DNA of 64,000 nt. Origin: Escherichia coli (GTDB lineage: Bacteria > Pseudomonadota > Gammaproteobacteria > Enterobacterales > Enterobacteriaceae). The stretch lies in NCBI RefSeq assembly GCF_003790525.1, contig NZ_CP033635.1. One strand, written 5' to 3'. Positions 41,668 to 64,000 of the stretch are shown here, one piece after another. Under the pieces are notes generated by a model that was not told the DNA's origin, searched no databases, and saw only the letters and a list, made by a program, of their open reading frames with translations. A program made the position numbers and the translations under genes. Numbering within the stretch: the stretch's first letter is position 1; each line of letters begins with the position of its first letter.

Positions 41668-41748
41668 AAATACTCCCGCTATCAACTGACGGTAGTATAA
41701 CGGAAGCAAATCATCTGCAATGCATTAAGCAGCAAGCAAATTGAGGAT

Positions 41749-41776: not shown

Positions 41777-41878
41777 AGACAGGGATGGTGTCACAAAAAA
41801 TCACCTAACCTACTGATATAAATGGATTTATATAAACCACTGTCCACATAGCGTCCACATCGACCATAAATAAAGCCC

Positions 41879-41891
41879 CTCAACTGAGGGG
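41879..41891. repeat. IS4 target-site duplication, left copy (CTCAACTGAGGGG)
   Basis: 13 bp identical to 43318..43330, directly abutting the IS4 end. Confidence 0.8.
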
Positions 41892-43317: not shown

Positions 43318-43330
43318 CTCAACTGAGGGG
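43318..43330. repeat. IS4 target-site duplication, right copy (CTCAACTGAGGGG)
   Basis: Identical to 41879..41891. Confidence 0.8.
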
Positions 43331-43342
43331 CTATTTTTGTGA

Positions 43343-43561
43343 TCACATCCACATAATTTGCTGCCCTGACGGCAACGGGTGCGGCCTCACGGCGTGGACT
43401 TCTCCCGGCTTCACGATGTATCTCTGTACCGACTCATAAGTGATGAACGTGGCGCTGCAATTCACGTTCTGGCACTGGTGATAACGCTCTTTTGTCGTGT
43501 CAGTGATATAGCGGCTTGTACGCGCATGTGCGGCATGCTGGCATAAAGGACAATGAAACAT
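43343..43561 (-). CDS. ogr: P2 late-gene transcription activator Ogr (zinc-finger)
   Basis: 72-aa translation MFHCPLCQHAAHARTSRYITDTTKERYHQCQNVNCSATFITYESVQRYIV...; Cys4 zinc finger. Confidence 0.95.
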   Translation of the reverse strand: MFHCPLCQHAAHARTSRYITDTTKERYHQCQNVNCSATFITYESVQRYIVKPGEVHAVRPHPLPSGQQIMWM

Positions 43562-43642
43562 CGCGAGCACCTCTTCCGGTTTTGTTGATAGTGCCATTTT
43601 AGTTAAATTATCATTATAAAACAAAAAGATAAACAAAAGACA

Positions 43643-44806
43643 TCACTCATAATCTTCTGTTTCGTACTCCACATCAGAAAGCCTGACCTCAAGCTCTAAG
43701 GACGTCGTGAAGCCGCTATTATTCAGAAAATGTGTCACCTTAGTGACTGTCCAGTCCTGCTCGTCTATGACGCGCTTAAAGCCTGACACTCTGACCGGTG
43801 TTTCCGTGTAAATATCTGCACGACCGGTAGCCAGGATGATGGAGAACTCCGCAACGCCCCGTTGCAGTTTATCCCACTTCGCCTGAGCAGCACGCATGGC
43901 CTGTGCTTTCGTGGCATATACCGTGGTCAGGGCAAAAACGTTGTCAGCCTCACCGGCCATGTATTCACCTTCGCGCGCTTCCGGTACTTTTGGCGCTTTC
44001 TTCTGCGTGACTGGTTTCGCTTTCGGGTGCTCCAGTGCGCGCAGGTGTTTTTCTTTCTTTTTGCGTTTCAGTTTTACCTTCTGCTTTTGCGGCTTCGGGT
44101 CTTTGGTGTGAAGCCACTTTGCCGTTACGCCGGTATAGGCTCCACGGTCAGCAATCGCAAAATGATGACGGTCGCCGTCGCTGCGGGTGATGGTAATCTG
44201 CGGGATTTTTTTACCGCTGGCCGTCACCCCCTGCCCCGCTTTGAGAAACAACAGTTTTCCCATTTTTACCGACACCTCACCGCCGTTGCGTTCAGCAAGG
44301 CGGGTCAGGAATTTTGCATCAGACTCCTGCGACTGGTCGATGTGCGGGATTTTAATTCCGGCCAGTGACGGAGCGACACTGGCTTCCAGCCTGTTACGGG
44401 AGGCTATCGCCTCAACAATCGCACCGAGCGTGGTGTCATGCCAGGAGCCTTCACGGCGGGAATTGAGCGTGCCACGAAAATCTGCACTCCGGGCCCGGAT
44501 GGCGACCACATCCGGCGTGCCCCGGTGTTCTACCTCATCAACGGTGAATTTCCCTTTGCATACCAGGGCAAAACCTTTCCAGCCGATATACACCGTCAGA
44601 ACAGCGCCACGAACCGGCAGTTCGACCTGCCCGTCGGCATCGTTCAGTTCAATATCAAGCTGATCAGCCTCAAAGCCCCGGTTATCCGTCAGGGTCATGC
44701 TCATCAGACGGTCGCTGATATTGCCGGTAATATCCCTGCTGTCGAGCATCAGCATGTAATCCGGCGTCAGCGTACTGCCTGCATCAAATGTCAGCGCATC
44801 CAGCAT
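43643..44806 (-). CDS. D: P2 gpD-like tail protein
   Basis: 387 aa; position between U and ogr. Confidence 0.85.
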   Translation of the reverse strand: MLDALTFDAGSTLTPDYMLMLDSRDITGNISDRLMSMTLTDNRGFEADQLDIELNDADGQVELPVRGAVLTVYIGWKGFALVCKGKFTVDEVEHRGTPDVVAIRARSADFRGTLNSRREGSWHDTTLGAIVEAIASRNRLEASVAPSLAGIKIPHIDQSQESDAKFLTRLAERNGGEVSVKMGKLLFLKAGQGVTASGKKIPQITITRSDGDRHHFAIADRGAYTGVTAKWLHTKDPKPQKQKVKLKRKKKEKHLRALEHPKAKPVTQKKAPKVPEAREGEYMAGEADNVFALTTVYATKAQAMRAAQAKWDKLQRGVAEFSIILATGRADIYTETPVRVSGFKRVIDEQDWTVTKVTHFLNNSGFTTSLELEVRLSDVEYETEDYE

Positions 44807-45285
44807 TATTCCGCCCCCGTCATCCCCGTGAATCTGGTCGCCAGACTACCGGCCTTACCGATGAGCGACTCCGCCTGTTTACCGATATCGCCATAAAGCG
44901 CGGCCAGTGATTCATCAACGCGGGTGAGCGACAGCGTAAAATCAATTTTTCGGGGTGTGCCGTCTGCAAAGAAAATACTCCCTGTTTCACTCACCTTGCT
45001 GATGACATACATGCCGTAAATCATGCCTGTGCCATCCAGCAACGGCCACGCCCGGCCTTCCTCTGCCATCAGCCTGAGCGTGGTCATCGTCAGCTTGCCG
45101 CCGGTCAGTTCGGGATAAAGCACGCCGGCAAGCGTAATGTTTTCCTCACCCACACCGAGAAACTGAAAGGCATCCCGTTTACCGATACGGGAATTTGACG
45201 GCCAGCGATAATCTGATTCGCGCTGCATGGTCTGGTGTGGCAGCGTCTGGCGCATAAAAACAAACATACCTAACGCGAGCATCAT
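44806..45285 (-). CDS. U: P2 gpU-like tail protein
   Basis: 159 aa; position between T and D. Confidence 0.85.
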   Translation of the reverse strand: MMLALGMFVFMRQTLPHQTMQRESDYRWPSNSRIGKRDAFQFLGVGEENITLAGVLYPELTGGKLTMTTLRLMAEEGRAWPLLDGTGMIYGMYVISKVSETGSIFFADGTPRKIDFTLSLTRVDESLAALYGDIGKQAESLIGKAGSLATRFTGMTGAE

Positions 45286-45299
45286 TTTTAGTCACCTCC

Positions 45300-47747
45300 T
45301 TAACCGTCATGCATCATGCTGGCACGGGCGCGCACACGTTTATCCCGCTCGTATTTTTCGAGCGCATCCTGTAACTGGCGGTCGAGCTGTGTCCCCGGCG
45401 CAGTACCACCCGTCAGGCTGATGTGATATTCGTTTTTACTCTGGTCCACATAAGAGCGGCCAGCCGGTGCCGTGACCGGCTGATAAGCCTGATAGCCTGC
45501 ATAAGAGCTGGTCGCCGGAATATAACCACCGCTGCCATACGTGGCGGCTTGAGTTCTGGCGGCGGTCTGGTCAAGTGTGTCTGACTCTTTGTTGATAACA
45601 CCGAGTTTTTCCAGTACCCAGTCAATACCGCTGCGCAGTTTGTTGAACGCATTAAGCGGCAGCATCAGCGCGTCAGCCAGTGCCTGCCCGAACATGACCC
45701 CCGTGTCACGGCAACTGTTCAGGGAGTCCTGAGTGGCTTTGACCGGGGCAATCAGGTTTTTAAACCACTGCCACGCGGCCTGTAACTTTTCACCCAGCCA
45801 GTCAAACACCGGCTTAAGTGGCGTGAACAGTTCCCCCACCGGCGCAAATGCCACTTTCAGCCCTTCAACCACACCGCCAAAGAATGCGCTGACAGGCTCC
45901 CAGTATTTACGGATAAGCAACGCCCCGGCGACAATTGCGGCCACCACGGCCACAACCGGCCAGCTAATAACCCCGATGGCGGTCATAACAGCACTGCCAA
46001 CCGTCGTGAAGACTGCCCCCATTGCGCCTGCTGCCGCGATGATGGCATTGATGCCGGTGATAACCGGCCAGGCTACGAGGCCAATGGCACCGATGATGCC
46101 AGTCAGCGCCAGCGCGCCACCGGCAATGATGCCGATGGTTGACGCCAGTGATTTGTTTTTCTGGATCCAGCCGTCGAGTTTTAACACATACTTTGTGGTC
46201 GTCTGCGTGAGCTTACGCAGCGCGCCTTCCTGCTGGTCAAACAGGTCAGTCCCCACTGCCTCATAAGCGGACTGAAACTCTTTAAAGTCACCGCCTAGGT
46301 TGTCCTGCATGATATTTACCAGCTCGGCGGTCTTCCCGTCTGAGGATTTAAACGCAGCGGTCAGTTTGTCCAGCTTTCCGGTTGAGGCGGCAGTCATCAG
46401 CACGGCGGCGGCTGAGCTGGCCTCCTCCCCGAAAATAGTTTTCATGTATTCAGCCTGCTGGGCAGTACCGAGCCGGTTTTTCTCAAAACTGGCCTGCATT
46501 TCTTTCAGAATGGTAAATATTGGCCGGGTGTTTCCCTTGCTGTCTGAGGTTTTCACTCCAAGCTCTTTGAGTGCATCCCATGCTTTTCCCGTCGGTGCCT
46601 GCAGGCGGCTTAACACGGCACGGCTTCCCGTCCCCGCCATTGAGCCTGTGATTTTTGCATCATGCAGCGCCCCGACCATTGCGGCGGTTTCTTCAATGCT
46701 GACACCGGCATTTTTTGCCACAGGTGCGGCATAGGTCAGCGCATCGCTCATGCCGTCAAAATCGGCGGCGGTTTTGTTCATCGTCATGGAGAGAACATCC
46801 CCGATATGAGCGACCTTATCGTTTGAAAGCTGAAAGGCGGATTTCATCCCCATCAACAGGGCGGCGTTTTCTTCCATCGTGCGGCGGTTCGCCAGCGCCA
46901 TATTCAGCGTGACCGGCGTTGCCGCCTGAATGGCATCAACATCCCCACCCGCTTTCGCGATGATTATCTGTGCACCGGCCGCATCATCCGCCGAGGCGGC
47001 GGTATTGTCGCCGAGCTGGCGCGCCTGTTTGCGTAGTGCGGTCATTTCGGCGGAGTCTTTTGCCACTCCGAGCACGGCCAGCAATTCTGAGTTTTTCTGC
47101 GCAAACTCATAACCTGGCATCAGCAACTTAACTCCGGCCATCGTTCCCGCCGCCGCAATCCCCACACCGGCAGCGCCCACTGAGGCCATATTTCCGGCCA
47201 GTTCCTTGCCTGCCTGATAACGCTGTTTTACTGCGTTAAGTTTTGCCTGTTGCGCACTGACACGCGCCAGCGCGTCACGCTGACGGTTAAGCTGTGCGGT
47301 GGTTTCACTGATACGGTTTTTCAGTCCCTGCTCATCATGTGCAAGATTGCGGGTATTAATTCCCACAACGGCCAGTTCCCGCTGCTGGCGTTTAACGGAA
47401 TCCGTCAGGCGGTTATATTTCGCCTGTAAGTCCTCCGCCGCACGCTTCGCGGATTCCAGCACTTTCGCCTGAGCACGTGTCGGACGTTCGGTGTTTTTAA
47501 ACTGTGTGGCAAGGGCTTCGGCCTCCTGCCGTGCCTTTTCAAGTGCATGACCAGTCACGGCGAGCTGTGCACTGGTCTTGCGAAATCCCTCAATACGGGA
47601 TGCCTGACCGTTCAGCTCACGCAGTGATTTTTGTGTTTCCCGGATATCCCCCGACAGCGATTTGCTCGCTGTGCGGATGGATTTAAACGGGCGGGATGCC
47701 TGGTCAACAGCCCTGAGCAATACCTGTAATTTTACATTGTTACTCAT
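45300..47747 (-). CDS. T: Tail tape measure protein (gpT)
   Basis: 815 aa, coiled-coil N-half, Gly/Ala-rich hydrophobic segments; downstream of E/E'. Confidence 0.9.
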   Translation of the reverse strand: MSNNVKLQVLLRAVDQASRPFKSIRTASKSLSGDIRETQKSLRELNGQASRIEGFRKTSAQLAVTGHALEKARQEAEALATQFKNTERPTRAQAKVLESAKRAAEDLQAKYNRLTDSVKRQQRELAVVGINTRNLAHDEQGLKNRISETTAQLNRQRDALARVSAQQAKLNAVKQRYQAGKELAGNMASVGAAGVGIAAAGTMAGVKLLMPGYEFAQKNSELLAVLGVAKDSAEMTALRKQARQLGDNTAASADDAAGAQIIIAKAGGDVDAIQAATPVTLNMALANRRTMEENAALLMGMKSAFQLSNDKVAHIGDVLSMTMNKTAADFDGMSDALTYAAPVAKNAGVSIEETAAMVGALHDAKITGSMAGTGSRAVLSRLQAPTGKAWDALKELGVKTSDSKGNTRPIFTILKEMQASFEKNRLGTAQQAEYMKTIFGEEASSAAAVLMTAASTGKLDKLTAAFKSSDGKTAELVNIMQDNLGGDFKEFQSAYEAVGTDLFDQQEGALRKLTQTTTKYVLKLDGWIQKNKSLASTIGIIAGGALALTGIIGAIGLVAWPVITGINAIIAAAGAMGAVFTTVGSAVMTAIGVISWPVVAVVAAIVAGALLIRKYWEPVSAFFGGVVEGLKVAFAPVGELFTPLKPVFDWLGEKLQAAWQWFKNLIAPVKATQDSLNSCRDTGVMFGQALADALMLPLNAFNKLRSGIDWVLEKLGVINKESDTLDQTAARTQAATYGSGGYIPATSSYAGYQAYQPVTAPAGRSYVDQSKNEYHISLTGGTAPGTQLDRQLQDALEKYERDKRVRARASMMHDG

Positions 47748-47891
47748 TCGTGTTTCCGCTTCGCCGGAGCGCCTTTTCGCGCCATGTGATGAGTTCGGTC
47801 AGGCTCATGGGATACAGTTCTGATGGCGGCCAGTGAAATATCACTGCCACATCCGCCATCAGGTCATCGACCGAGAGATTTTTCGGAAACG

Positions 47892-48167
47892 TCACTGCAC
47901 CGAGTTCGGCGACAAAAAACCGACCACCTTACCGGCCAGCGCCACAAGGTCAGGCAGTTCCAGCGCGGCGACCTCCTGTTCGGTCAGCATCGGTGCCGTC
48001 ATGCGCGGCAGCACTTTAATCAGTGCATCGACTTCGGAGTTCGCGACCGCAGCCAGACTGACACCGCGCAGCGTCCCGGCATTGGGTTTCATCAGCGTGA
48101 CCTGTTCGATAACCTGCTCACCACGCTTGACCGGATTGTCCAGGGTAATCACATTTTCTTTGTTCAT
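47892..48167 (-). CDS. E: Tail assembly chaperone gpE (E' made by -1 frameshift)
   Basis: 91-aa ORF between FII and T; slippery heptamer near its 3' end. Confidence 0.8.
   Translation of the reverse strand: MNKENVITLDNPVKRGEQVIEQVTLMKPNAGTLRGVSLAAVANSEVDALIKVLPRMTAPMLTEQEVAALELPDLVALAGKVVGFLSPNSVQ
47913..47919 (-). other. Candidate programmed -1 frameshift slippery site (T TTT TTG) for E/E'
   Basis: Minus-strand ggttttttgtc about 7 codons before the gpE stop; P2 makes E+E' by -1 frameshift at TTTTTTG. Confidence 0.5.
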
Positions 48168-48223
48168 GGTTTTCTCACTTCTGAATCAGGGTTAACCGGT
48201 CAGCCTGGCTGACCGGATGAAAA

Positions 48224-48742
48224 TCACAGGCCGATATTGCGGCGGTGTTGCTCCAGCCGGTCGACGCCGTTCACCTTCTCAATCATGTTGATGGTGTCGA
48301 TTTCGACCAGCTCCTTACCGTCCATCGTCAGCCGGAAATAGGTGCAGACCACGGAGATTTTCGACTCAGTGTCTTCTCCCTGTTTACCCTCGCCAGTGTC
48401 GATTTCTTTCTGACGTCCACGCATGACCACTTCGACGGCCACCGTTTCGCCGGTATCGTCACGCTGGTAAGAGCCTGCAAAACGAATCGGCACAGCATCC
48501 ACACCGGTTGCGGCGTAAAGCTCCCAGATAACCGAATCCGGGAAGCCACCGAGTGACCACTCCATTGACAGCGCATCGTCATCAAGGCCGAGGTCTACCG
48601 GTGCGCTGCCGTTCATCCCCGCACCGCGATAGTTTTCGAGCTTACGGGTCAGTTTTGGCAGCGTGACGGACTTTGCAACGCCCTGATAGCTGTAGCCGTT
48701 CAGAAAGACGTTCATTAACTTGAGTTTGCGCGGCATTGCCAT
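48224..48742 (-). CDS. FII: Tail tube protein (gpFII)
   Basis: 172 aa; position after FI. Confidence 0.9.
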   Translation of the reverse strand: MAMPRKLKLMNVFLNGYSYQGVAKSVTLPKLTRKLENYRGAGMNGSAPVDLGLDDDALSMEWSLGGFPDSVIWELYAATGVDAVPIRFAGSYQRDDTGETVAVEVVMRGRQKEIDTGEGKQGEDTESKISVVCTYFRLTMDGKELVEIDTINMIEKVNGVDRLEQHRRNIGL

Positions 48743-48754
48743 CGGTCAGGCTCC

Positions 48755-49945
48755 TTAATTGCTGTTAACCGAGGTGACCAGATTTGCCAGGTATTTATCG
48801 GTAATACGCTGGCGCAGGGTCAGGTTTTCAAGAGGAGGCACCGGGGTATAGTCGTAGTCGATATACAGTTTTCCGGCCTTAAGGGTTTCCGCATCGTTGG
48901 ATTCTTCGCTGAACCAGCAGGTCGCATCCACGATATAGCCGTTTGTTTTCAGCTCACGGAATTTGGCATTGATGCCGTCAACGATGTCGCGAATCAGCGT
49001 TGCGGTGATGGGCTTGTCCACCGCCCACATGTGCGCCTCAGCCATCGTGTCGGCCAGCACCTGCGCGGTGCGGGTGTAGTTTTCAAAGAGGAACAGCGGG
49101 TCATCAGAGCAGGTACGGTTACCCCAGAATCGGAAACCGTCGCGGCGAATCAGCGTAGTGACGCCTGACTCGTTAAGCAGGTCAGCATCGGTGCCGGACT
49201 CCTGCAAATCCCAGAATACAGATGCGCTGATGCCGGTAACACCGTTCACCCCGACATTGGACAGCGTTTTATGCCAGCCCTGCTCCTGGTCGATTCTGGC
49301 ACGCAGACCCAGCGCACGGGCGGTGGCATACGCGGTGGCGGTGGTGCTGGTGACCGTATCCCATGCGAGGAAATCCGGCCAGATGACCATCAGCTCACGC
49401 TGGCTGAAATTCTGGCGGTAGGCTTTCACCTCGGAAATGGTTTTACAGCCCCATGCGCTGATATACCCGAAAGCGCGCAGCTTCTGACAGACTGATGCCA
49501 GTGCAACAGCCACCTCTTTGGTATCCAGCCCCGGCACGCCGAGAATACGCGGTTTAACACCGGTTACCGACTCCGCCGCCAGCAGGGCTTTCAGTCCGGT
49601 GTACTGACCGTTTTCGTCGGTGGTGCCGATGATATTGGAAACGGTCTGCGCAAGTTTCGTTTCCTCGTCGTCGCCGGTGCCGTCTTCCACACGCACGACA
49701 ACGGTGACCGGTTTTGACTGGTCGGCGATGGCCTGCAACGATGCCGCCAGCGTGCCTTTTTTACCGGCCTTTGCAATTGCGCTCTGCACATTGGTAATCA
49801 GCACTGGTTTATTGAGGGGGAAGATTTCCGCATCCGCATCGCTGGCCGTGCAGACCATGCCAACAATGGCGGTGGATACGGTGGAAATGACGCGGGTGCC
49901 GTCGTTAATCTCCAGCACCTGCACGCCGTGATGATAGTCACTCAT
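48755..49945 (-). CDS. FI: Contractile tail sheath protein (gpFI)
   Basis: 396 aa; MSDYHHGVQVLEINDGTRVISTVSTAIVGMV...; position before FII. Confidence 0.9.
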   Translation of the reverse strand: MSDYHHGVQVLEINDGTRVISTVSTAIVGMVCTASDADAEIFPLNKPVLITNVQSAIAKAGKKGTLAASLQAIADQSKPVTVVVRVEDGTGDDEETKLAQTVSNIIGTTDENGQYTGLKALLAAESVTGVKPRILGVPGLDTKEVAVALASVCQKLRAFGYISAWGCKTISEVKAYRQNFSQRELMVIWPDFLAWDTVTSTTATAYATARALGLRARIDQEQGWHKTLSNVGVNGVTGISASVFWDLQESGTDADLLNESGVTTLIRRDGFRFWGNRTCSDDPLFLFENYTRTAQVLADTMAEAHMWAVDKPITATLIRDIVDGINAKFRELKTNGYIVDATCWFSEESNDAETLKAGKLYIDYDYTPVPPLENLTLRQRITDKYLANLVTSVNSN

Positions 49946-50041
49946 CCGTTTAACTCCGTGGTTAATGGGTGCAACTATTTTCTGTTGGGCAGTGCATGAG
50001 ACGCTATTTGACCTGGCTGGTCAGTGGATGAAACAACAGAT

Positions 50042-50072
50042 AAAGAAAAGGCAGGCAATTCGCCCGCCTGTC
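50042..50072 (-). terminator. Putative terminator downstream of the G/FI cargo gene
   Basis: Minus strand caggcgggcgaattgcctgcc followed by ttttctttatc. Confidence 0.45.
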
Positions 50073-50264
50073 CTGATTTGTACTCACTCATTTTCCGACT
50101 GACAATTTACATAGCCAAAACGCTATCAAATCTGACAGTCTGCTTTGAGCGAGGAGCAGAGGTTAGTTTTAGTTAACCAAAATGATAAAAAGCAGTAGAA
50201 AAATCCGCTCATTACGTTATGGTTATAAGCCGCACATAATCATCCGAGCCAAATCCTCTTGATT

Positions 50265-51164: not shown

Positions 51165-51379
51165 TACTCCTCCATAAAGATAGGCGCAAGCATTTAGTAA
51201 TAAACCATTAACATGCCGAGATCATACCCGATCATTGAAATGTAAACACTCCCCTAAGACGGCTGCTGGCATAATATTTTATGACATCAGCAATGCCCAC
51301 CTCTGGCACAGAGTGGACTGTCAGATTAGGCTTTACTCTGTGCCATAGATATGTAAGCCCACACTAGAGCTCATACAAC

Positions 51380-51907: not shown

Positions 51908-51908
51908 A

Positions 51909-53930: not shown

Positions 53931-53940
53931 TATTCCTCAC

Positions 53941-55372: not shown

Positions 55373-55376
55373 GGTT

Positions 55377-56356: not shown

Positions 56357-56439
56357 GCGTGTGAGATTGCACAATATATAAAAGTTATGCTATCTGGATT
56401 CATTTGTAGAACGACCATACAACATTCGAGGAGAGCGTA

Positions 56440-57225
56440 ATGTTCAGTGATAATGTGACTAATGCGTGGTGGTTTATCTCTTTGTATCTATTTTTATTAA
56501 TAGCATTAACATTTGTTACCTTTGGTAAAAGTAATCTTATGAGGTTTATTGCACATCATTTCAATCTTGAGTATTCAGACAGAAAGTTAAAAATGCTCGA
56601 CAAAAAATGGCGCGACATTCAACTATTTAAAATAATTAACGGAATCAATGTATCAGGCATCGAAGATGTGAGAATGATACAGCAGGGGCTGATTGATGGA
56701 AAACTAAAAACATCGTATTTTTTCCTTACTCGCTTCTGGGGTGACATAACAAAACCACCACACATAATTAAAACAACAATTGTAATTCTGGCCAGTATTA
56801 TTTATATTCTCTTCGCATGTTATATACACAATGAACAATCCGCTATAGTAAGGGATGCCATAGGTATACCATATAAAAATATGATGTACTATGTTTATAG
56901 TGACAAAGTTCTTTTATCCTTCAAAAATAAAACGGTTGAATTTAATAAAACTTATAGCCTTGCCGATTGCAAGAGTCTGCAAAACGTATTTATAAAAGAC
57001 ACACTTCCCGAGATCGCCTGCAATAAGCTCTTACAGCTAAACAAGGAGGACTCCGAATGGTTAAGTCAGGAGATTAAAGATAATAACAGCCACAGAAAAA
57101 CATTATTAATAATATCCCTAACCTATTTCATTTCAGGTCTGCTTATATTCCTGTCATATACAAAATTCCTTTACGCCAATAAGAAGGTTTTAGAATACAA
57201 AGCATCAAATAAAAACCACTCATAA
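56440..57225 (+). CDS. AT-rich cargo (moron) membrane protein at the P2 orf30 position between S and V, opposite strand to the late operon
   Basis: 261 aa, about three predicted TM helices, very AT-rich, divergent from V; no family recognised. Confidence 0.6.
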   Translation: MFSDNVTNAWWFISLYLFLLIALTFVTFGKSNLMRFIAHHFNLEYSDRKLKMLDKKWRDIQLFKIINGINVSGIEDVRMIQQGLIDGKLKTSYFFLTRFWGDITKPPHIIKTTIVILASIIYILFACYIHNEQSAIVRDAIGIPYKNMMYYVYSDKVLLSFKNKTVEFNKTYSLADCKSLQNVFIKDTLPEIACNKLLQLNKEDSEWLSQEIKDNNSHRKTLLIISLTYFISGLLIFLSYTKFLYANKKVLEYKASNKNHS

Positions 57226-57236
57226 ACCTCTAAATA

Positions 57237-57261
57237 TTGAGCGACCAGCACGGCCGCTCAA
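57237..57261. terminator. Hairpin between the S/V cargo gene and S
   Basis: ttgagcg accagcacggc cgctcaa inverted repeat; weak flanking T-run. Confidence 0.35.
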
Positions 57262-57296
57262 TGCTTAATTGCGCATCAGCCTCTGCCTTGATAAAA

Positions 57297-57749
57297 CTAA
57301 CGCTCAAGGTGAGCCAGGATAATCTCTTCAATCATCTGCACATCCTCACCGGTAAAGCCGAGCAGAGGACGCGCCGGATAATCAATTTTCTTACCGTCTT
57401 TCCGGTTTTCTTCCGACAGACCGAACTGATGCACACTGGCGATTTTCGGTGACTTCCCGCCGTAAAACTCCATTGATGCCTGTTCCGGGCTGGCGCGGAT
57501 ATGCAAAAAACGACTGGTGATAAGTTTCGCAAACATTTTTCGCTTAACACGACCGGTCTTTTTTCTGGCGCTCTGCTGCTGGCGTGGCGCGTAGGGTGTG
57601 CCGTCCGGAGCTTTCTGTGCCATCACCCGACGCTGCTGACTCTGCCGCAGGCGTTTCGCCAGTTCGGCACTCAGTCGCCGACGCCCTGACGGTGACAGCG
57701 ATTCAATCAGTCCGGTCAGCCGGTCTTCAAAACGCTTAAACTCATTCAT
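57297..57749 (-). CDS. S: Tail completion protein (gpS)
   Basis: 150 aa; position after R. Confidence 0.85.
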   Translation of the reverse strand: MNEFKRFEDRLTGLIESLSPSGRRRLSAELAKRLRQSQQRRVMAQKAPDGTPYAPRQQQSARKKTGRVKRKMFAKLITSRFLHIRASPEQASMEFYGGKSPKIASVHQFGLSEENRKDGKKIDYPARPLLGFTGEDVQMIEEIILAHLER

Positions 57750-58209
57750 CCCACTTGCTCACCAGTTCGCCATTGATATACAGCTCCATCGGGCGGGTGA
57801 CCGGCTCCGGCGGCGGAGGTTCCGGGATATTCTTCACATGCAGCGCGCCGTCCACCTCACTGACCAGCGTGCGCTCGGTCAGCATCAGGCTGATACTGAT
57901 ATCAAAGCTGCTGTCATTGTTGATGTCCGCATAAAACGTGAAGCCCTTTTTCTGGCCTGCGTCGGTGGTCATGATGTCGGGCTGATTTTCCCGCAGCCAC
58001 GCCAGCACCGGCACGATGAGCAGGTCAAAATCACCGGTAAAGTCGGTCACAATGACATTGAGCGTGTAACGCTTTTCAAATGACAGCGACCTCGCCAGTG
58101 TGGAGGCAATACTCCCGTTATCCACGAATATCCGCAGCATCTCGGGACTGGTTTTCAGCACCGTGACAGCATCAGTCAGCGCCCTGCGCAGGCTGTCGGG
58201 TTTGAGCAT
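57742..58209 (-). CDS. R: Tail completion protein (gpR)
   Basis: 155 aa; position after the lysis genes. Confidence 0.85.
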   Translation of the reverse strand: MLKPDSLRRALTDAVTVLKTSPEMLRIFVDNGSIASTLARSLSFEKRYTLNVIVTDFTGDFDLLIVPVLAWLRENQPDIMTTDAGQKKGFTFYADINNDSSFDISISLMLTERTLVSEVDGALHVKNIPEPPPPEPVTRPMELYINGELVSKWDE

Positions 58210-58462
58210 CGTTTTCGTCCTGACAGTGTTTAATCATTTTTACCTGGCTGGCACAGCGTGCCAGCGCGTTCTCAAGCTGCCGGATATCAGCACTTAAATC
58301 GCCGTTCGTCTCCGGGTCACTGCCCGGCATCGGGCAAAGGCTCACTTTCGGGCAGGCGTTGTGGACAATCACTGGCGTCGGCGCAGGCCGGGCGCTGGTG
58401 CAACCGGCGCACAGCATCAGGCAGGTCAGCGCCGTACCAGCGGCGAAAATCTTCGTTTTCAT
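58172..58462 (-). CDS. lysC: LysC, Rz1-like outer-membrane lipoprotein spanin embedded in the lysB region
   Basis: MKTKIFAAGTALTCLMLCAGCTSARP lipobox-like signal followed by a Pro-rich region; alternative frame overlapping lysB and the start of R. Confidence 0.6.
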   Translation of the reverse strand: MKTKIFAAGTALTCLMLCAGCTSARPAPTPVIVHNACPKVSLCPMPGSDPETNGDLSADIRQLENALARCASQVKMIKHCQDENDAQTRQPAQGAD

Positions 58463-58742
58463 TAAGTAACCTCGTGATGGTTTTCTCGCGCTGTGCTTCA
58501 CGCTTCGCGGCGTTCTCCAGCTCCTGACGCAGTGCCACCTGCGCCAGCTCGTTTTTGTCTGCCCTGGTAAGGGCAACATGAAGCTGATTTTTCAGCATGG
58601 TGATGGTCGTCTGCTGTTCACTGGCGACGTTGTTCGCCCTGTCCAGCGAGGCGCGCAGGCTGGCATTTTTGTGTTTCACCAGAAACAGACCGGCCACCGC
58701 CAGTGATAACAACACGACCAGCACAATCATCAGCTTTGACAT
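58317..58742 (-). CDS. lysB: LysB, Rz-like inner-membrane spanin
   Basis: 141 aa; N-terminal TM then coiled-coil region. Confidence 0.8.
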   Translation of the reverse strand: MSKLMIVLVVLLSLAVAGLFLVKHKNASLRASLDRANNVASEQQTTITMLKNQLHVALTRADKNELAQVALRQELENAAKREAQREKTITRLLNENEDFRRWYGADLPDAVRRLHQRPACADASDCPQRLPESEPLPDAGQ

Positions 58743-59155
58743 GGTTCCCGCCCCTCAAAACGCTGACAGCAGGCCGTACGTATCAGCCGGAAGAACACCG
58801 ATGCCACGAGATAAATCAGCGCGGTAAAAATCCACCCGGCAGCGACCAGCGAGATAAACGTCGCCACCATCACTACCAGAGCCACTGACCGCCTGCGCCA
58901 CGGCACCGGCTGCAAAAACAGCGCCGTGACAATCTTCACGGCCAGCGATTCCGGCGGCAGCTCCCGCCCGTAGCGTTCCAGTACATACTCAGTGGCATAC
59001 ACGCCGACACCACCGGCAACCACACAGATAACCGTCGCCAGAATCGCCCAGGCGGCGACAAAACTGACGGCCACGCTCTGCGGGTAAATCAGGGACAGTG
59101 CCAGCATCAGCGCCAGCGACACGTTCAGCATCAGTGAAAGGGATAATTTCTTCAT
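58730..59155 (-). CDS. lysA: LysA lysis-timing membrane protein
   Basis: 141-aa multi-TM protein between K and lysB. Confidence 0.8.
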   Translation of the reverse strand: MKKLSLSLMLNVSLALMLALSLIYPQSVAVSFVAAWAILATVICVVAGGVGVYATEYVLERYGRELPPESLAVKIVTALFLQPVPWRRRSVALVVMVATFISLVAAGWIFTALIYLVASVFFRLIRTACCQRFEGREPCQS

Positions 59156-59169
59156 GGTGTTTACTCCGT

Positions 59170-59667
59170 TTAAGCCAGTACGCCGCCAGCGGTACGCCAG
59201 ACGGTGAACAGTTTTTCCAGTGAATGCTCACGCTGACCGTAACCGGCACCCGGCAGGGACGCCCAGATATTGCGACAGCGTGAAATGGCGCGCTCAATGC
59301 GTCCCGCCCGGATGTCATCCAGTGCACCGCGTTCGCGGATCAACTGAATGGCGAGTCTGTCCTGTGACAACGGACTGAAATCAGGCAGGGCAAGCTGTTT
59401 GCGGTAGTGCGGCCAGAACAGGTAAAGCTGCTGATAGCGACCGGAGGCCGTGGATTTTTCACCGCGACGGTTAAACACCTTCGCCGGTCGGCCATGCGCG
59501 AACGGGTGGTCACTGTAGTCGGTGAAAATTTCCGGCTTCCCGTCCAGTCCGGTGACTATCACGTCATAGCCCCGGTTTTTCGTCAGCGGATGATTCGCCG
59601 TCCCTTCGGACACGGCCAGCATGTCGAGAAAGGCGGCGATATTCTGGTGCGTGTTAATTACCGGCAT
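59170..59667 (-). CDS. K: Endolysin (gpK)
   Basis: 165-aa translation MPVINTHQNIAAFLDMLAVSEGTANHPLTKNRGYDVIVTG... (lysozyme-like). Confidence 0.9.
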   Translation of the reverse strand: MPVINTHQNIAAFLDMLAVSEGTANHPLTKNRGYDVIVTGLDGKPEIFTDYSDHPFAHGRPAKVFNRRGEKSTASGRYQQLYLFWPHYRKQLALPDFSPLSQDRLAIQLIRERGALDDIRAGRIERAISRCRNIWASLPGAGYGQREHSLEKLFTVWRTAGGVLA

Positions 59668-59948
59668 TACGGTTTCCCCCTGCCCTTAAAGCGGCGCTGA
59701 ATGGCAATCTCAATCACCTGATAACCGGCGATACCCAGCATGGAGCCGATGCCGCAAACCGCAGGCAGTGACAGGTCAGGAAACTGCACCAGAACAACAC
59801 CGGCAACCATCGAGACAAAACCACCGAGCAACATGCGCCCGATAAACAGACGCGGGGTGATGGGTTCACCACCGGTAAGCACCTTGCCGACAACAATCAG
59901 CACCCCAATCATGAAAAGCGACAGGACGCTTTTTTCTTCTGCTGTCAT
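59667..59948 (-). CDS. Y: Holin (gpY)
   Basis: 93-aa small TM protein directly upstream of the endolysin. Confidence 0.85.
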   Translation of the reverse strand: MTAEEKSVLSLFMIGVLIVVGKVLTGGEPITPRLFIGRMLLGGFVSMVAGVVLVQFPDLSLPAVCGIGSMLGIAGYQVIEIAIQRRFKGRGKP

Positions 59949-59951
59949 GCG

Positions 59952-60155
59952 TTACTCCCACAGATTGACAGTTTCAGCCACGGGCGCGGTCTGAACGTCG
60001 GGCAGTTCGACGGCGGTGCCATGTGGCAGCACCGCACCCAGTTCAGCCAGTCCCGGATTTGCGACGAGCACGGTCTCAACCACGCCCTCAGTGCGCCCGT
60101 AATACCGGACACAAATGGCGTCGAGCGTGTCGCCCTGTAGCGCAAAGGTCTTCAT
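59952..60155 (-). CDS. X: Tail protein gpX (LysM-like)
   Basis: Start trimmed to MKTFALQGDTLDAICVRYYGRTEGVVETVLVANPGL. Confidence 0.85.
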   Translation of the reverse strand: MKTFALQGDTLDAICVRYYGRTEGVVETVLVANPGLAELGAVLPHGTAVELPDVQTAPVAETVNLWE

Positions 60156-60664
60156 CAGATTTGACTCACGATGCAGCGCGGCTTGTCCTGGATACGCGCC
60201 ACCGCCCAGCGCATATCCCGCCACAGTTCATCAATGGTGCTGTCAATGCTGTCAGCCTTCTTGTCACCTTTCGCACTGGCATCCACGCCGCGATAACGCT
60301 CATAAAGCGACGCGGTCGCCATCGCACACACGGCGCGCTCGTAGTAAAAAACTTTGATGCTTTCACCGTCGATGTCGTCCGCCGGGACGTCCGCCAGACG
60401 CGTAAAACCGGCGGCAATTTTCTGTTCGCGGTACTCGTACAGCTCCGCATTCGTCTCCGCCATGCCTGACTTGATGGCCTCACGCAGACGGGCGGGGGCG
60501 ACGGTCTGCTCAAGGCGCATACGTTCCCGGACGCGCTTCGGGTCGATATCGGGAAAAAAGAACGTGTTTTTAATCACCGGCTCGTCGCCTGCCGGTTGCG
60601 GGATGACCACCGTACCCTCACCGGACACGGGAGCCTCCTTTCGCGGAATAATCAGCGTCATCAT
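60155..60664 (-). CDS. L: Head completion/stabilisation protein (gpL)
   Basis: Start trimmed to MMTLIIPRKEAPVSGEG...; position between M and X. Confidence 0.85.
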   Translation of the reverse strand: MMTLIIPRKEAPVSGEGTVVIPQPAGDEPVIKNTFFFPDIDPKRVRERMRLEQTVAPARLREAIKSGMAETNAELYEYREQKIAAGFTRLADVPADDIDGESIKVFYYERAVCAMATASLYERYRGVDASAKGDKKADSIDSTIDELWRDMRWAVARIQDKPRCIVSQI

Positions 60665-60763
60665 GACTACCTCTGAAAAGTCGGGCGGTGGACGCCGGTG
60701 CAATGTCAGGTAATTCACCCTCACTGACCGGCGTGCCGCCCTGGCGCGGGGCGCATTCGGTTG

Positions 60764-61507
60764 TTAACTGGCTTTCTTTTTCGGGCGTCCACGTTTTGCC
60801 GGTGTCACGCTCCGGGTCTTACGCGGGGTACGGGTGGCCGCTTTTGGCTGCGGCTCCGGCTTCGGTTTCAGCTCCCGCTCCAGTCGTTCAATCTCTTTTT
60901 TGACGCCTGCCTGACAGTCGAGCTGTGTCGCACGTTGCAGGTGAGCCAGCGCACCGGCGGCATCACCAGCGTCACGCAGAAACAGACCGGTGATTTTGTG
61001 CAGCTTTGCGCGCACTTCATCAGGCATGTCAGCCGTGGCGGTCAGTTCAATGGTCTCCGTCAGCAGGCGGGTATCCACAGACTCACCGGCAGCGTGAGCA
61101 CGCATGGCCGCGAGCGCCACCTCCTCGGTGAACATGTACGGCGGGGGGCGGCGGTGTTTACCCGGCATGGTCAGACCGTACTTCAGGGCATAACGGGCAA
61201 TCTCCAGCGCACCGGCAATATCGCCGGTATCCAGACGCCACAGCATGACCGTCATCAGAATGTCATCCTGTGCACCTTTGCCCTGCTCCAGCACGCCGTT
61301 CACCCACGGCAACCAGAACGGCAGCAGTTCGCGTTTTTTCGCGGCCTTCAGCTCTTTTGAATAAATCGCTTTCAGTGTGCGCTGGTCTGCGGCCAGCTTG
61401 ACCAGCATCTGCTCATAGACAGTTGCATGTCGCAGCGGGGCGGCTTCCCGCTGCGCGGTCATCGCTGCCGAGACCCGCATCATGTGGCGCTGTGCGGGAC
61501 TCGTCAT
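60764..61507 (-). CDS. M: Terminase endonuclease (small) subunit (gpM)
   Basis: 247 aa with basic C-terminus; position after N. Confidence 0.85.
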   Translation of the reverse strand: MTSPAQRHMMRVSAAMTAQREAAPLRHATVYEQMLVKLAADQRTLKAIYSKELKAAKKRELLPFWLPWVNGVLEQGKGAQDDILMTVMLWRLDTGDIAGALEIARYALKYGLTMPGKHRRPPPYMFTEEVALAAMRAHAAGESVDTRLLTETIELTATADMPDEVRAKLHKITGLFLRDAGDAAGALAHLQRATQLDCQAGVKKEIERLERELKPKPEPQPKAATRTPRKTRSVTPAKRGRPKKKAS

Positions 61508-61510
61508 CGG

Positions 61511-62584
61511 TCACGCTCCCGGCTCTGCGGTCGCCCTGGCCGGTGTGGAGAAATCACCGACCTTAATTTTTTCCACCAGACAACCGGCGGCGTAGTCTTC
61601 CACCACGTAATCAATGTTCATTGACTCGTAGTTCTCCACGCGGTCGAGTTTCGGGTTTTCCACAATCACGCGGCGATGGCTGTCATCCATGTAGTAGATG
61701 GACAGGTTTTCCAGCTTCGTGATGAGCATCGCATCCGCCGGGAAGTACGGGACGCGTACCGCTGGCAGGTTGCCGATGCGTTTCTGGCTGATGATGACGT
61801 CAGCGGCCAGCATTTCGCTGTTGTCCTGCTCCTTGTTGACGATGGGAAAATACTTGTCCGCCAGTAGCTGACGTCCCACAATCACCACAAGGTCAGGGTC
61901 TTCCTGATACCACGGCTCAATCAGGTTGTTGGTCGCATCCATCACCAGTGCATCAAGGCTGGCATAATCACCGCCCTTACCCACGCGGATGACCTCAGAG
62001 GTGGTGTGCCCTTCCTCGTCAGTGACCTTGCTCATCACGCGCGCCGGGGCTTCATTGCGGTATTTCTGCAGCCAGCCGACCGCCACATCCTGCAGCATCG
62101 GATTGCTGCTGCGGTCAGAGGTTTCGGCACGCTTCACGCCGTTAAAACCGGCCATGATGAAATCAAGGGACTGGCGTTTGATAATGGCGTTACGGACACG
62201 GAGCTGGAAATCCTGATAACGCGCCCACAGGTCCAGCGTTTTGTAGCGGATATAAAAATCGAAGTTAATCTGGTCGCATTCGTACTTGTTTGACGCCAGC
62301 TTCGAGAAGTCCTTCGGCTGACGCTCGGTGCCACCGGCGGTGTCGGTGGTGCTGGCGATGGAGCCGGTGACACCAATACCAATTTTTTCCCCTTTCATTT
62401 CGCTGACCGGCACAATGTTGATGCGGGTCAGAAAGTCAGAGGACTCCTGCATGGTGTTCATCAGGGTCTGGGTGACCGACGGTTCAACGGTGAATTTTTT
62501 CGACACATCACCGGCGTCGATGCCGTTCAGTTCGGCAACACGGGACAGGTAGGCATTAAATTTAAAGCGGGTTTCCTGGCGCAT
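61511..62584 (-). CDS. N: Major capsid protein (gpN)
   Basis: 357 aa; position O-N-M. Confidence 0.9.
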   Translation of the reverse strand: MRQETRFKFNAYLSRVAELNGIDAGDVSKKFTVEPSVTQTLMNTMQESSDFLTRINIVPVSEMKGEKIGIGVTGSIASTTDTAGGTERQPKDFSKLASNKYECDQINFDFYIRYKTLDLWARYQDFQLRVRNAIIKRQSLDFIMAGFNGVKRAETSDRSSNPMLQDVAVGWLQKYRNEAPARVMSKVTDEEGHTTSEVIRVGKGGDYASLDALVMDATNNLIEPWYQEDPDLVVIVGRQLLADKYFPIVNKEQDNSEMLAADVIISQKRIGNLPAVRVPYFPADAMLITKLENLSIYYMDDSHRRVIVENPKLDRVENYESMNIDYVVEDYAAGCLVEKIKVGDFSTPARATAEPGA

Positions 62585-62642
62585 AGTTTTTCCTGAAATT
62601 AAGGGTTAATCGTGAAGGTTTTCCCGGACTGACTGACGCCGG

Positions 62643-63497
62643 TCAGCAGTTCGTCATCAGGGCGTCACCGCCACCGCCGGTGGCTTTGCTGCGGCGCTGC
62701 TGGGTCAGACTTTCGGTGTGGTCGAGACTGTTTTTCAGGCGGGTGAATGCCTGACTGGTTTCATCCGCCCTGTCAGTCACATCCTGCTTAAGTGCGGAAA
62801 AGGCGGTTTCCATCTCAGCAAGGCGCTGCTCAGTGGCGCTCAGTTTTTCCTGCACATGCTCAGCGACAGCGGTCACCGCTTCATGCACGTCATTCAGACG
62901 GGCGTCATCGCTGGCCTGTTTGCGGCCAAAAATGGATTTCACCTTTTCGGTCAGGGCGGTGAACACGGTTTCAGGCAGGTCTTCAAATTCCAGCTCAACG
63001 GGCGTTGCCACTGAAATCAGGTTTTCAGGGCTTAATTTGAAGCGGTTCAGGGGGTTGTGTTTTGCCGTGCGGCAGAATTCCAGATATTCCGTGCCGAGGC
63101 TTGCCGGGTCATCGGTGACGGCCAGACCCACCAGATAACATTTGCCGGTGTTGGCAAAGTTCGGCTGAATTTCCATTGAGGTGTAGACCTTCTGTGCGGC
63201 CTTGTTCATCGCGATAAGGTCATCGGTCGGGGTGATTTTCGCAAACAGCGCCCATTTGCCTTTCAGCGCCGAATCATCGTCAATCTTTTCGGCCTTCAGT
63301 TCGACCACATCGCCATAACGTTTAAAAATGCCGTCAGGCAGGATGCCTCGCAGATGTTCCAGGTTAATACGGCAACCATAGACACGCGGGTCAAAGGTTT
63401 CCGCCATTTCCTGAATATCCTGCGCACTGATGACACGCCCGTCACAGGTGTCACCCTCAACGCCGATACGAAAGAATTTTGAGACTTTTTTTGCCAT
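62643..63497 (-). CDS. O: Capsid scaffolding protein (gpO)
   Basis: Start trimmed to MAKKVSKFFRIGVEGDTCDGRVISAQDIQEMAETFDPR. Confidence 0.9.
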   Translation of the reverse strand: MAKKVSKFFRIGVEGDTCDGRVISAQDIQEMAETFDPRVYGCRINLEHLRGILPDGIFKRYGDVVELKAEKIDDDSALKGKWALFAKITPTDDLIAMNKAAQKVYTSMEIQPNFANTGKCYLVGLAVTDDPASLGTEYLEFCRTAKHNPLNRFKLSPENLISVATPVELEFEDLPETVFTALTEKVKSIFGRKQASDDARLNDVHEAVTAVAEHVQEKLSATEQRLAEMETAFSALKQDVTDRADETSQAFTRLKNSLDHTESLTQQRRSKATGGGGDALMTNC

Positions 63498-63670
63498 TGT
63501 CAGGAGTCCTGAATAGTGATTAGAGGAGTCACATGTCGGCATCAGTTTCCCGACGATGCGCATCCTCCGCCATCAGTCCCGGATGGCTTATCACTGACAC
63601 AACAGCACCTTAGCGAATCGCGGGGCGCGACTCAGTAGCCTTGCCGTGTATTCATCACGGCGAGGTATTC

Positions 63671-64000
63671 ATGACCATCACCACAGACACCACTCTTTTA
63701 CACGACCCGCGTCGTCAGGCGGCGCTGCTGTACTGGCAGGGGTTTTCCGTGCCGCAGATTGCCGCCATGTTGCAGATGAAACGCCCGACGGTGCAGAGCT
63801 GGAAACAGCGCGACGGCTGGGACAGCGTTGCCCCCATCAGCCGTGTCGAAATGAGTCTGGAAGCGCGGCTGACCCAGCTCATCATCAAACCGCAGAAAAC
63901 CGGCGGTGACTTCAAGGAAATTGACCTGCTGGGACGCCAGATTGAACGACTGGCACGGGTCAACCGCTACAGTCAGACCGGCAACGAGGCAGACCTTAAT
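63671..64000 (+). CDS. P: Terminase ATPase (large) subunit gpP, N-terminal part (3' end outside window)
   Basis: Frame-2 ORF from the ATG at 63671, open to the window end (MTITTDTTLLHDPRRQAALLYWQGFSVPQIAAMLQM...); divergent from O as in P2; absent from the ORF track because no stop lies in the window. Confidence 0.75.
   Translation, partial: MTITTDTTLLHDPRRQAALLYWQGFSVPQIAAMLQMKRPTVQSWKQRDGWDSVAPISRVEMSLEARLTQLIIKPQKTGGDFKEIDLLGRQIERLARVNRYSQTGNEADLN

Follow-up and report, generated by a model that had tools for sequence, protein, structure and literature searches.

Three described phages stand closest to the prophage considered here. Phage P2 (NC_001895) has the same late gene order, four late promoters, an E/E' frameshift, the Y-K-lysA-lysB-lysC genes, a lysC attenuator, the orf30 locus and an identical Ogr; it differs in having fun(Z) in the slot of orf44, old/tin in the slot of the methyltransferase locus, and its own integrase, repressor, Cox, att site and H tip. 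W-phi (NC_005056, Peduovirus Wphi) shares the 47-nt att core exactly, as well as Int (99.4%), C, Cox and Ogr (100% each; Int, C and Cox read in the copy of strain SMS-3-5, outside the window), orf44 (99.7%), mth/orf96/orf98 (100%) and the pF promoter (110/110), but lacks the orf30 cassette (56357-57294) and has another H tip (H 67%, G 87%) and a tape measure protein T of 91% identity. SIAC10 (OU784549/NC_070904) is a P2-like phage that Rousset et al. 2022 (PMC9122126) recovered from an uninduced culture by plaque formation on E. coli C. Its whole length of 33,562 bp aligns with the present prophage at 99.4% identity and with zero indels, the lengths being equal once IS4 is removed, and it has in common with the prophage the att core, orf44, orf30, a P1/Mu-like H tip and the methyltransferase locus. 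SIAC10 differs in being without IS4, in being a free plaque-forming phage rather than an integrated copy, and by about 200 substitutions (50 plus 149 outside the att stretch), those in the late region being concentrated in U-T-E-FII and O. At NCBI it is filed as 'Peduovirus P2'.

The window is a 64,000-nt stretch of E. coli DNA. Positions 41746-64000 very probably represent one half, from ogr to P and with the late structural and lysis genes, of a full-length temperate P2-family prophage (genus Peduovirus) of the WΦ/SIAC10 type, at the WΦ att site (cpxQ 3' end, cpxP/fieF), with a secondary IS4 in the ogr/F-operon terminator. The late region is intact and genuine, but ordinary, and the prophage has already been sequenced as part of a published annotated genome. 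By megablast against phage records, 43318-64000 is covered 100% by SIAC10 at 99.3% identity with no indels, 92% by W-phi at 96.1% and 91% by P2 at 96.4%.

Late genes, control sites and lysis cassette

The original prediction of a P2-like late region at 43318-64000 was borne out by the SIAC10, W-phi and P2 records, and all P2 late genes were found. Searches with P2 proteins (tblastn) placed them in P2 order, which is the Peduovirus late order: ogr, D, U, T, E, FII, FI, G, H, I, J, W, V, orf30, S, R, lysC, lysB, lysA, K, Y, X, L, M, N, O and P(1-110). The predicted match of gene order and translations to P2 held as well (K 98.8%, X 98.5%, L 99.4%, O 99.3%), as did the identity of Ogr to that of P2. 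As also predicted, only the ogr-to-P half lies inside the window, P being cut off at the window edge; Q and the remainder of P are seen in SMS-3-5. All 28 of the 28 ORFs have a start codon and none has an internal stop.

43343-43561, minus strand: ogr, zinc-finger late-promoter activator (PF04606 Ogr_Delta; 72/72 to P2 and W-phi Ogr)
43595-43601: ogr -10 element CATTTTA (P2 -10)
43643-49945, minus strand: F operon tail genes (97-100% to P2 proteins; Phage_TAC_7, Phage_GPD)
43643-44806, minus strand: D
44806-45285, minus strand: U
45300-47747, minus strand: T
47740-48167, minus strand: predicted E+E'
47892-48167, minus strand: E
48224-48742, minus strand: FII
48755-49945, minus strand: FI
49946-50069, minus strand: pF late promoter and activator site TGT-N12-CCA (identical to W-phi pF over 110 positions; half-site layout as in P2 pF)
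50049-50069, minus strand: terminator-like hairpin before pF
51380-56356, minus strand: V operon baseplate and tail-fibre genes (P2 protein matches, tblastn)
51380-51907, minus strand: G (89.7% to P2)
51909-53930, minus strand: H (67% to P2)
53941-54471, minus strand: I (100% to P2)
54464-55372, minus strand: J (98.7% to P2)
55377-55724, minus strand: W (100% to P2)
55721-56356, minus strand: V (97.2% to P2)
56357-56439, minus strand: pV late promoter and activator site, in a divergent intergenic region common to orf30 (26/28 to the annotated P2 activator site, at 56398-56425)
57231-57267, minus strand: O-operon terminator (34/37 to the annotated P2 terminator)
57297-57749, minus strand: S, tail completion (99.3% to P2)
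57742-58209, minus strand: R, tail completion (96.8% to P2)
58172-59948, minus strand: lysis cassette (92-99% to P2, tblastn)
58172-58462, minus strand: lysC, o-spanin (NF038368/PF23793 LysC)
58247-58265, minus strand: attenuator hairpin (19/19 against the P2 lysC attenuator)
58317-58742, minus strand: lysB, i-spanin (TIGR03495 LysB)
58730-59155, minus strand: lysA
59170-59667, minus strand: K, endolysin (PDB sequence match to lambda lysozyme 1AM7, E 7e-44)
59667-59948, minus strand: Y, holin (Phage_holin_3_2)
59952-63497, minus strand: tail and head genes X-O (98-99.4% to P2)
59952-60155, minus strand: X
60155-60664, minus strand: L
60764-61507, minus strand: M
61511-62584, minus strand: N
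62643-63497, minus strand: O
63498-63670, no strand assigned: divergent pO/pP region (shared activator site 63577-63607, 31/31 to P2; the 172 bp compared are identical to P2)
63671-64000, plus strand: P, terminase large subunit, first 110 of 590 codons (110/110 to P2 P; full gene and Q in SMS-3-5)

The tip of H (51954-52625) is 96-97% identical to the S fibre of P1/D6 and Mu/D108. The E/E' arrangement had been predicted too: the slippery site GGTTTTTTG at 47913-47921 is conserved, the -1 frame is open, and the fusion rebuilt from the sequence would be a 142-aa E+E' product differing from that of P2 by one residue. The PF04606 domain, the identity of Ogr and the conserved sites point to an Ogr/Delta-type activator with its target promoters. 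An exact search for TGT-N12-ACA returned 14 matches against 16 expected by chance, none of them at the promoters; the Ogr sites are imperfect and were located by alignment to the annotated P2 sites.

The lysis cassette is complete, as predicted, with Y, K, lysA, lysB and lysC all present and intact. The claim that lysC is nested within lysB was incorrect: the two genes share 146 nt, and lysC extends 145 nt beyond the lysB stop and 38 nt into R. A Pfam search with endolysin K gave no match at E <= 0.001. Hydrophobic segments in the proteins of the cassette are part of the evidence for it.

By analogy with P2, the late genes would be silent in lysogeny; derepression and replication would lead to Ogr synthesis, which would switch on pP, pO, pV and pF via dyad sites upstream. 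The P/M/Q/O/N/L products would then build and fill the capsid, and the F and V operons would supply the contractile tail, with the -1 frameshift product E+E' as probable tail chaperone. Lysis would be carried out by holin Y, the lambda-R-type endolysin K, LysA and the spanins LysB/LysC.

The IS4 insertion and the ogr-side end

The base directly after IS4 is position 43318, at which the right copy of its target duplication begins. To the left of IS4 lie another 146 bp of phage DNA (41746-41891) with the att core, the Int arm sites and the distal terminator copy; they are 100% identical to SIAC10 10082-10227, and the true prophage end is 41746, not 43318.

41746-41792, minus strand: 47-nt att core, ogr-side prophage/host junction (POB', attR in P2 usage)
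41793-41891, minus strand: phage P-arm region (identical to SIAC10)
41842-41848 and 41853-41859, minus strand: tandem Int arm sites TGTGGAC
41876-41891, minus strand: intact ogr/F-operon terminator hairpin and T-run copy (terminator scan)
41879-41891 and 43318-43330: 13-bp target duplication CTCAACTGAGGGG
41892-43317, plus strand: IS4, 1426 bp, 18-bp terminal inverted repeats (1420/1426, 99.6%, to annotated K-12 IS4)
41958-43304, plus strand: IS4 transposase ORF (Nterm_IS4 and DDE_Tnp_1; NCBIfam IS4 transposase)

The element has the characters of IS4 (1426 bp, 18-bp repeats, an 11-13-bp duplication and an IS4-type DDE transposase). K-12 IS4 (insG, b4278) is alike in length, terminal repeats and target duplication (12-13 bp) and differs in its insertion site, which here is the ogr/F-operon terminator hairpin of the prophage. 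Both targets, the two sites that were checked, fit AAA-N20-TTT, which we take to be the IS4 target rule; the literature search returned nothing relevant on an IS4 target consensus. The original prediction of an IS4-disrupted end stood as to IS4 being at the ogr end, but overstated the disruption: this is a simple insertion, with 13-bp duplication, that interrupts only the terminator hairpin, and the end is not truncated. No ORF, arm site or part of the att core is touched by IS4.

The att core 47-mer is identical at both SMS-3-5 junctions, in W-phi attP (22550-22596) and in SIAC10. It also partly duplicates the 3' end of the cpxQ sRNA with its terminator (46/47 to K-12 cpxQ nt 15-58 plus 3 nt), and integration at cpxP/fieF is as in W-phi. 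The arm sites fit the P2-type consensus tgTGGaCa (PMC3448106). An Rfam scan of 41000-64000 gave no match to the CpxQ model; its sole match, Hrs1 on the att-core terminator, was sub-threshold (31 bits against a gathering score of 56) and was set aside as an artefact.

Since IS4 spares every ORF and att element, excision would yield a genome of 35,001 bp, against 33,562 bp for one free of the insertion. The insertion destroys the ogr-proximal copy of the native terminator but brings in the 11-bp hairpin and U-run that the IS4 end carries. The extra 1.44 kb (104% of P2 length) and the changed terminator may carry a fitness cost, and it is conceivable, though on balance doubtful, that the full-length prophage has ceased to be productive, grounded by IS4 (the extra length, and loss of the native terminator beside the Int arm sites) or by silent point changes, and is now only passed on vertically with its orf44, orf30 and methyltransferase locus. 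Among 5,426 complete E. coli genomes, 896 (about 16%) carry 80% or more of a late region of this kind, and 13, from human, chicken and river sources, have the same IS4 junction. Because these sources are varied, the shared junction indicates vertical inheritance of this copy over some time, and its identity in all 13 favours clonal inheritance over recent infection. Four of these relatives show decay: in FXCREC180 deletions have taken D-U-T-E-FII-part of FI and W-J-I-part of H but spared ogr, orf44 and orf30, FXCREC123 gives a truncated match, and the late region of GN03551 and GN03139 has gained an IS3-family element; the loss of tail genes with retention of the inserts, and the IS3-family insertions, fit a prophage out of production. 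Against this, no late ORF is broken, the codon differences from SIAC10 in these ORFs comprise 106 synonymous and 29 non-synonymous changes with no indels, the insertion avoids all coding and att sequences, and its end would supply a substitute for the lost hairpin and U-run.

Extent and affinity of the prophage

The window is identical to E. coli SMS-3-5 except at 1 base in 25,436. The SMS-3-5 prophage lies between cpxP and fieF and continues in P2 order through Q, the cos side, A, B, cox, C and int to a second att core beside cpxP. Absence or rearrangement of the early region, named in advance by the original prediction as grounds for regarding the element as a remnant, was thus not seen; the early region and cos lie outside the window and are known from near-identical public genomes, and the presence of cos is to be expected from the unbroken alignment with the whole SIAC10 genome. 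Minus IS4 and the duplication, the SMS-3-5 prophage has exactly the length of SIAC10, 33,562 bp, and 99.4% identity to it. With its early region present and its match to SIAC10 gapless but for IS4, the prophage is not a remnant. That the element is a remnant with only the late region, or a tail-only (tailocin-like) element that has been domesticated, as suggested by the window stopping inside P so that the early half is not directly visible, is highly improbable given intact capsid, scaffold, terminase and head-completion genes, and both readings were rejected as already contradicted by the SMS-3-5 context.

That the phage is P2 itself, with the species, immunity and integration site of P2, is likewise highly improbable and was rejected on the att core and the immunity and integrase comparison: the majority of late proteins are 97-100% identical to P2, Ogr is the same and the closest relative bears the P2 label at NCBI, but Int (51%), C (46%) and Cox (43%) are far from those of P2, fun(Z), old and tin are missing, the 146 bp of att DNA match W-phi and SIAC10 and have no P2 match, and Ogr identity is not diagnostic because W-phi carries the same Ogr. 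Whole-genome identity times coverage is 75.4% to P2 and 92.4% to W-phi; against the usual species line of 95% genome-wide similarity, the prophage falls outside the P2 species and just below the line for W-phi, the latter shortfall being due to the orf30 cassette, the H tip and T divergence. By att core, Int, C, Cox, orf44 and methyltransferase locus, the sequence comparisons place the prophage in the W-phi type, predicted to be heteroimmune to P2.

The orf44 and orf30 inserts

Both low-GC genes, orf44 and orf30, sit at variable loci as non-essential inserts.

50265-51164, minus strand: orf44, 299 aa, GC 0.39, in place of P2 fun(Z) at the Z/fun hotspot (99.7% to W-phi gp44)
56440-57225, plus strand: orf30 homologue, 261 aa, hydrophobic, GC 0.43 (84% to P2 Orf30; PHROG 2407, to which PHROG assigns no function)

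Two cargo genes had been described; two inserts are indeed present, but orf30 is not foreign cargo, being P2's own non-essential gene at 84% identity. It is present in P2 and SIAC10 and absent, with its cassette, from W-phi, and the literature search found nothing relevant on the function of P2 orf30. The orf44 cassette (50165-51303) has no P2 homology. Neither gene matched Pfam, PADLOC or NCBIfam, and sequence profiles from orf44 and orf30 family searches found no match in PDB. Among the 84 members of the orf44 family scanned, there were only scattered single-member matches, and no PADLOC model or defence-associated Pfam domain matched consistently. Across the family the CCHC zinc site is invariant and aromatic residues are near-invariant. 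AlphaFold modelling of orf44 from a shallow 12-sequence alignment was unusable (pLDDT 51) and was replaced by a model from an 84-sequence alignment (pLDDT 93), which gave OB-fold matches; orf44 is predicted to combine a CCHC zinc finger with an OB-fold.

Vassallo et al. 2022 name the Z/fun slot as the second P2 defence hotspot. This position, the length of about 300 aa, the zinc site, the aromatics, the confidently predicted OB-fold and the lack of a recognisable enzymatic domain suggest, tentatively, a possible role for orf44 (W-phi gp44 family) as a new one-gene factor against phages or mobile elements acting by nucleic-acid binding.

The prophage is mostly of little import in itself: its late region is a textbook case for the P2 family, in a genome already published and annotated, and its IS4 is a benign, lineage-marking insertion. 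Because the prophage belongs to the W-phi/SIAC10 type, neither the immunity nor the att sites of P2 should be taken for granted in it. Its orf44 lies in a recognised defence hotspot, and the prophage gives context for other findings.

The late gene module

A P2-like late region had been proposed for 43318-64000, and a phage megablast together with tblastn of P2 proteins now establishes a late region of this family, the resemblance being far too strong to arise by chance. In a search of 50,697 phage records, megablast gave 100% coverage and 99.3% identity to SIAC10 (OU784549/NC_070904), a plaque-forming P2-like phage, 92% coverage and 96.1% identity to W-phi (NC_005056), and 91% coverage and 96.4% identity to the P2 reference (NC_001895). 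tblastn with every P2 protein recovered ogr, D, U, T, E, FII, FI, G, H, I, J, W, V, orf30, S, R, lysC, lysB, lysA, K, Y, X, L, M, N, O and P in the P2 order and orientation, P being represented in the window by its first 110 residues only. The translations singled out beforehand also agree with P2 (Ogr 72/72, K 98.8%, X 98.5%, L 99.4% and O 99.3%), and 28/28 late reading frames have a proper start and no internal stop. Family-level searches independently support the Ogr/Delta zinc finger, holin family 2, LysB, LysC, the E-type tail assembly chaperone and gpD. Endolysin K had no match in the Pfam search and resembles the phage lambda lysozyme 1AM7 (E 7e-44).

The predicted E/E' arrangement is present, with a slippery run, GGTTTTTTG, at 47913-47921; a -1 shift there would give a protein of 142 residues, with 1 difference from P2 E+E'. 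Nesting of lysC within lysB, on the other hand, was not found. Instead lysC (58172-58462) overlaps lysB (58317-58742), starting inside it in a different frame, passing the lysB stop by 145 nt and reaching 38 nt into R, and a RefSeq note likewise describes lysC as overlapped. Among control elements, the 172 bp compared between O and P are identical to P2, and matches to P2 were 26/28 for the pV activator site, 19/19 for the lysC attenuator and 34/37 for the O-operon terminator. The pF promoter is identical to W-phi across 110 nt and has the TGT-N12-CCA layout seen in P2. By established P2 biology, Ogr would activate pP, pO, pV and pF; the P and O operons would provide terminase, portal, scaffold, capsid and head completion proteins, and the V and F operons baseplate, fibres, sheath, tube, tape measure and the E/E+E' chaperones. 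Lysis would proceed through holin Y, endolysin K, LysA and the spanin pair LysB/LysC.

Completeness and affiliation of the prophage

Positions 38565-64000 match E. coli SMS-3-5 (NC_010498.1) in reverse complement, differing at 1 of 25,436 bases: a T at 57289, G in SMS-3-5, in the intergenic stretch that separates S from the O-operon terminator. The early region was checked in SMS-3-5 for absence or rearrangement and neither was found, consistent with a prophage rather than a remnant; the order there is att core by cpxP, int, C, cox, B, A, methyltransferase locus, Q, P and onward to the att core by fieF. The SMS-3-5 prophage aligns with SIAC10 in three gap-free blocks, IS4 being the only structural difference, and measures 35,001 bp with IS4 and its duplication and 33,562 bp without them, exactly the SIAC10 length. 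Since the early genes are present, the alignment is gap-free and the lengths are equal, the sequence comparison identifies the prophage as full-length, its late module intact. SIAC10 itself was obtained from uninduced culture supernatant and forms plaques on E. coli C (PMC9122126). Late-region codon differences from SIAC10 comprise 106 synonymous and 29 non-synonymous changes. Nearly all 146 substitutions fall within U-T-E-FII (44318-49317) and O (62318-63497), the rest of the late region being almost identical to SIAC10, and this clustering looks like recombination patches.

Genome-wide, identity multiplied by coverage was 99.4% for SIAC10, 92.4% for W-phi and 75.4% for P2. Ogr cannot discriminate among the three because it is identical in all of them. 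Outside the window, the SMS-3-5 prophage matches W-phi in Int (99.4%), C (100%), Cox (100%) and mth/orf96/orf98 (100%), whereas P2 reaches 51% in Int, 46% in C and 43% in Cox; within the window, orf44 is 99.7% identical to W-phi gp44. A search with P2 proteins found no fun(Z), old or tin in the SMS-3-5 prophage. Judged from these sequences, the affiliation is with W-phi, not P2. SIAC10 (NC_070904) is filed under Peduovirus P2 in the NCBI taxonomy, yet by identity multiplied by coverage the near-identical SMS-3-5 prophage scores 75% to P2 and 92% to W-phi. The old/tin hotspot in SMS-3-5 (13634-16804 of the retrieved locus L003, outside the window) contains three genes, for a C5 cytosine methyltransferase, a hypothetical protein and a protein with a ParB N-terminal domain, each 100% identical to its counterpart among W-phi mth/orf96/orf98. 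About one in four P2-like phages has been described as having a putative partition system here (Rousset et al. 2022, PMC9122126).

Three pieces of the late region, all of low GC, give it a mosaic character.

Mosaic pieces and orf44 in the window
50165-51303, orf44 cassette, standing in for the P2 fun(Z) cassette
50265-51164, late-gene strand, orf44 (W-phi gp44)
51954-52625, tip of H, DNA 96-97% identical to the S fibres of P1/D6 and Mu/D108
56357-57294, orf30 cassette, P2-like and missing from W-phi

The C-terminal part of tail fibre H, unlike both P2 and W-phi, is recognizable as a swapped receptor-binding tip.

IS4 and the left end

Left-end features in the window
41746-41792, att core, 47 nt
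41842-41848 and 41853-41859, Int arm sites, tandem TGTGGAC
within 41746-41891, distal terminator copy, intact
41879-41891 and 43318-43330, IS4 target duplication, 13-bp direct repeat CTCAACTGAGGGG
41892-43317, IS4, exactly 1426 bp with 18-bp terminal inverted repeats

The original prediction described this end as disrupted by IS4, but truncation was not borne out. The element matches K-12 IS4 at 1420/1426 positions, and taking it out with one duplicate regains AAAGCCCCTCAACTGAGGGGCTATTT, which the P2 annotation gives as the rho-independent terminator of the ogr and F-operon transcripts; the element has therefore simply inserted into the terminator hairpin, without truncating this end. The 146 bp to its left (41746-41891) are 100% identical to SIAC10, and the true prophage end is on the att-core side of IS4, not at 43318. 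On the side facing ogr, IS4 leaves the native hairpin incomplete. The right end of the element, as read by ogr and F-operon transcripts (43313-43288, - strand), carries an 11-bp stem followed by UCUUUUU and may serve as a transcription terminator replacing the destroyed native one. The published target rule for IS4 is AAA-N20-TTT, which was not found in the literature searched. With the duplication centred, this pattern fits both the target here (41876-41891 + 43318-43345) and that of K-12 IS4 (1091-2516 of the retrieved locus L013), with duplications of 12-13 bp at the two sites. The prophage terminator has the same shape, its hairpin being flanked by an A-run and a T-run.

The att core has exactly the sequence of the W-phi attP core and occurs at both SMS-3-5 prophage junctions. 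Its K-12 counterpart (46/47; 845-891 of the retrieved locus L004) comprises nt 15-58 of the sRNA cpxQ, the 3' end of cpxP, plus 3 nt, and takes in the cpxQ terminator; the sole difference, C in K-12 and A in the phage, lies in the loop. Integration therefore rebuilds cpxQ beside cpxP, while a second, partial copy remains at 41746-41792, on the fieF side.

Cargo genes and spread among E. coli genomes

Two cargo genes had been singled out. The first, orf30, encodes a hydrophobic protein 84% identical to P2 Orf30 and is a diverged allele of P2's own non-essential gene. The other, orf44, has close relatives in only 12 clusters in Enterobacterales and belongs to a wider, unannotated family of ~300-aa proteins (152 representatives) in which only C33, C38, H71 and C75 (a CCHC motif) are invariant; F63, Y147, W182, F185 and Q295 are near-invariant. 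No match was found in Pfam, PADLOC or PDB sequences. The structure model, built on an 84-sequence alignment (pLDDT 93), confidently predicts an OB-fold. A terminator-like site was looked for in the G-orf44 interval and none was found; a hairpin lies at 50049-50069, downstream of orf44. A 39%-identical homologue on metagenome contigs (5045-6903 of locus L008) comes immediately after an AbiTii-domain gene, with umuDC-like genes nearby. A remote homologue (L011) follows a relaxase gene. The fun locus has been reported as the second defence-enriched locus of P2 (Vassallo et al., PMC9519451). Taken together, the AbiTii and relaxase neighbours of homologues and this enrichment make a defence role for orf44 plausible but unproven.

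The remainder of the window is ordinary chromosome, from gldA to fieF. Low-GC host stretches lie at about 7100-14300 and 27700-29300 (mapped from 31.6-34.4 kb and 12.2-13.7 kb of locus L007); the SMS-3-5 counterpart of the first is a metL-metF insert with three 5'-nucleotidase genes and a Tsx pseudogene, and that of the second is two hypothetical genes between zapB and rraA. The identical IS4 junction occurs in 13/5,426 complete genomes. One of these, FXCREC180 (4709-12141 of locus L005), no longer has D-U-T-E-FII and part of FI, nor W-J-I and part of H, but keeps ogr, orf44 and orf30, so its decay spares the cargo genes; FXCREC123 gave the same shortened match. Two strains from the IS4-marked lineage, GN03551 and GN03139, have a further IS3-family transposase within the late region. 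The shared junction and the decay in relatives thus point to a prophage long passed on by vertical descent that has decayed to some extent in sister lineages.

At least 80% of the late region is present in 896/5,426 complete E. coli genomes, and the late-region finding is correct and ordinary. The exact sequence was already known from a published genome, and a 99.4% identical phage had been isolated and sequenced. What is useful lies in the corrections: the true prophage end, the affiliation with W-phi and not P2, the benign IS4 and the overlapped lysC.
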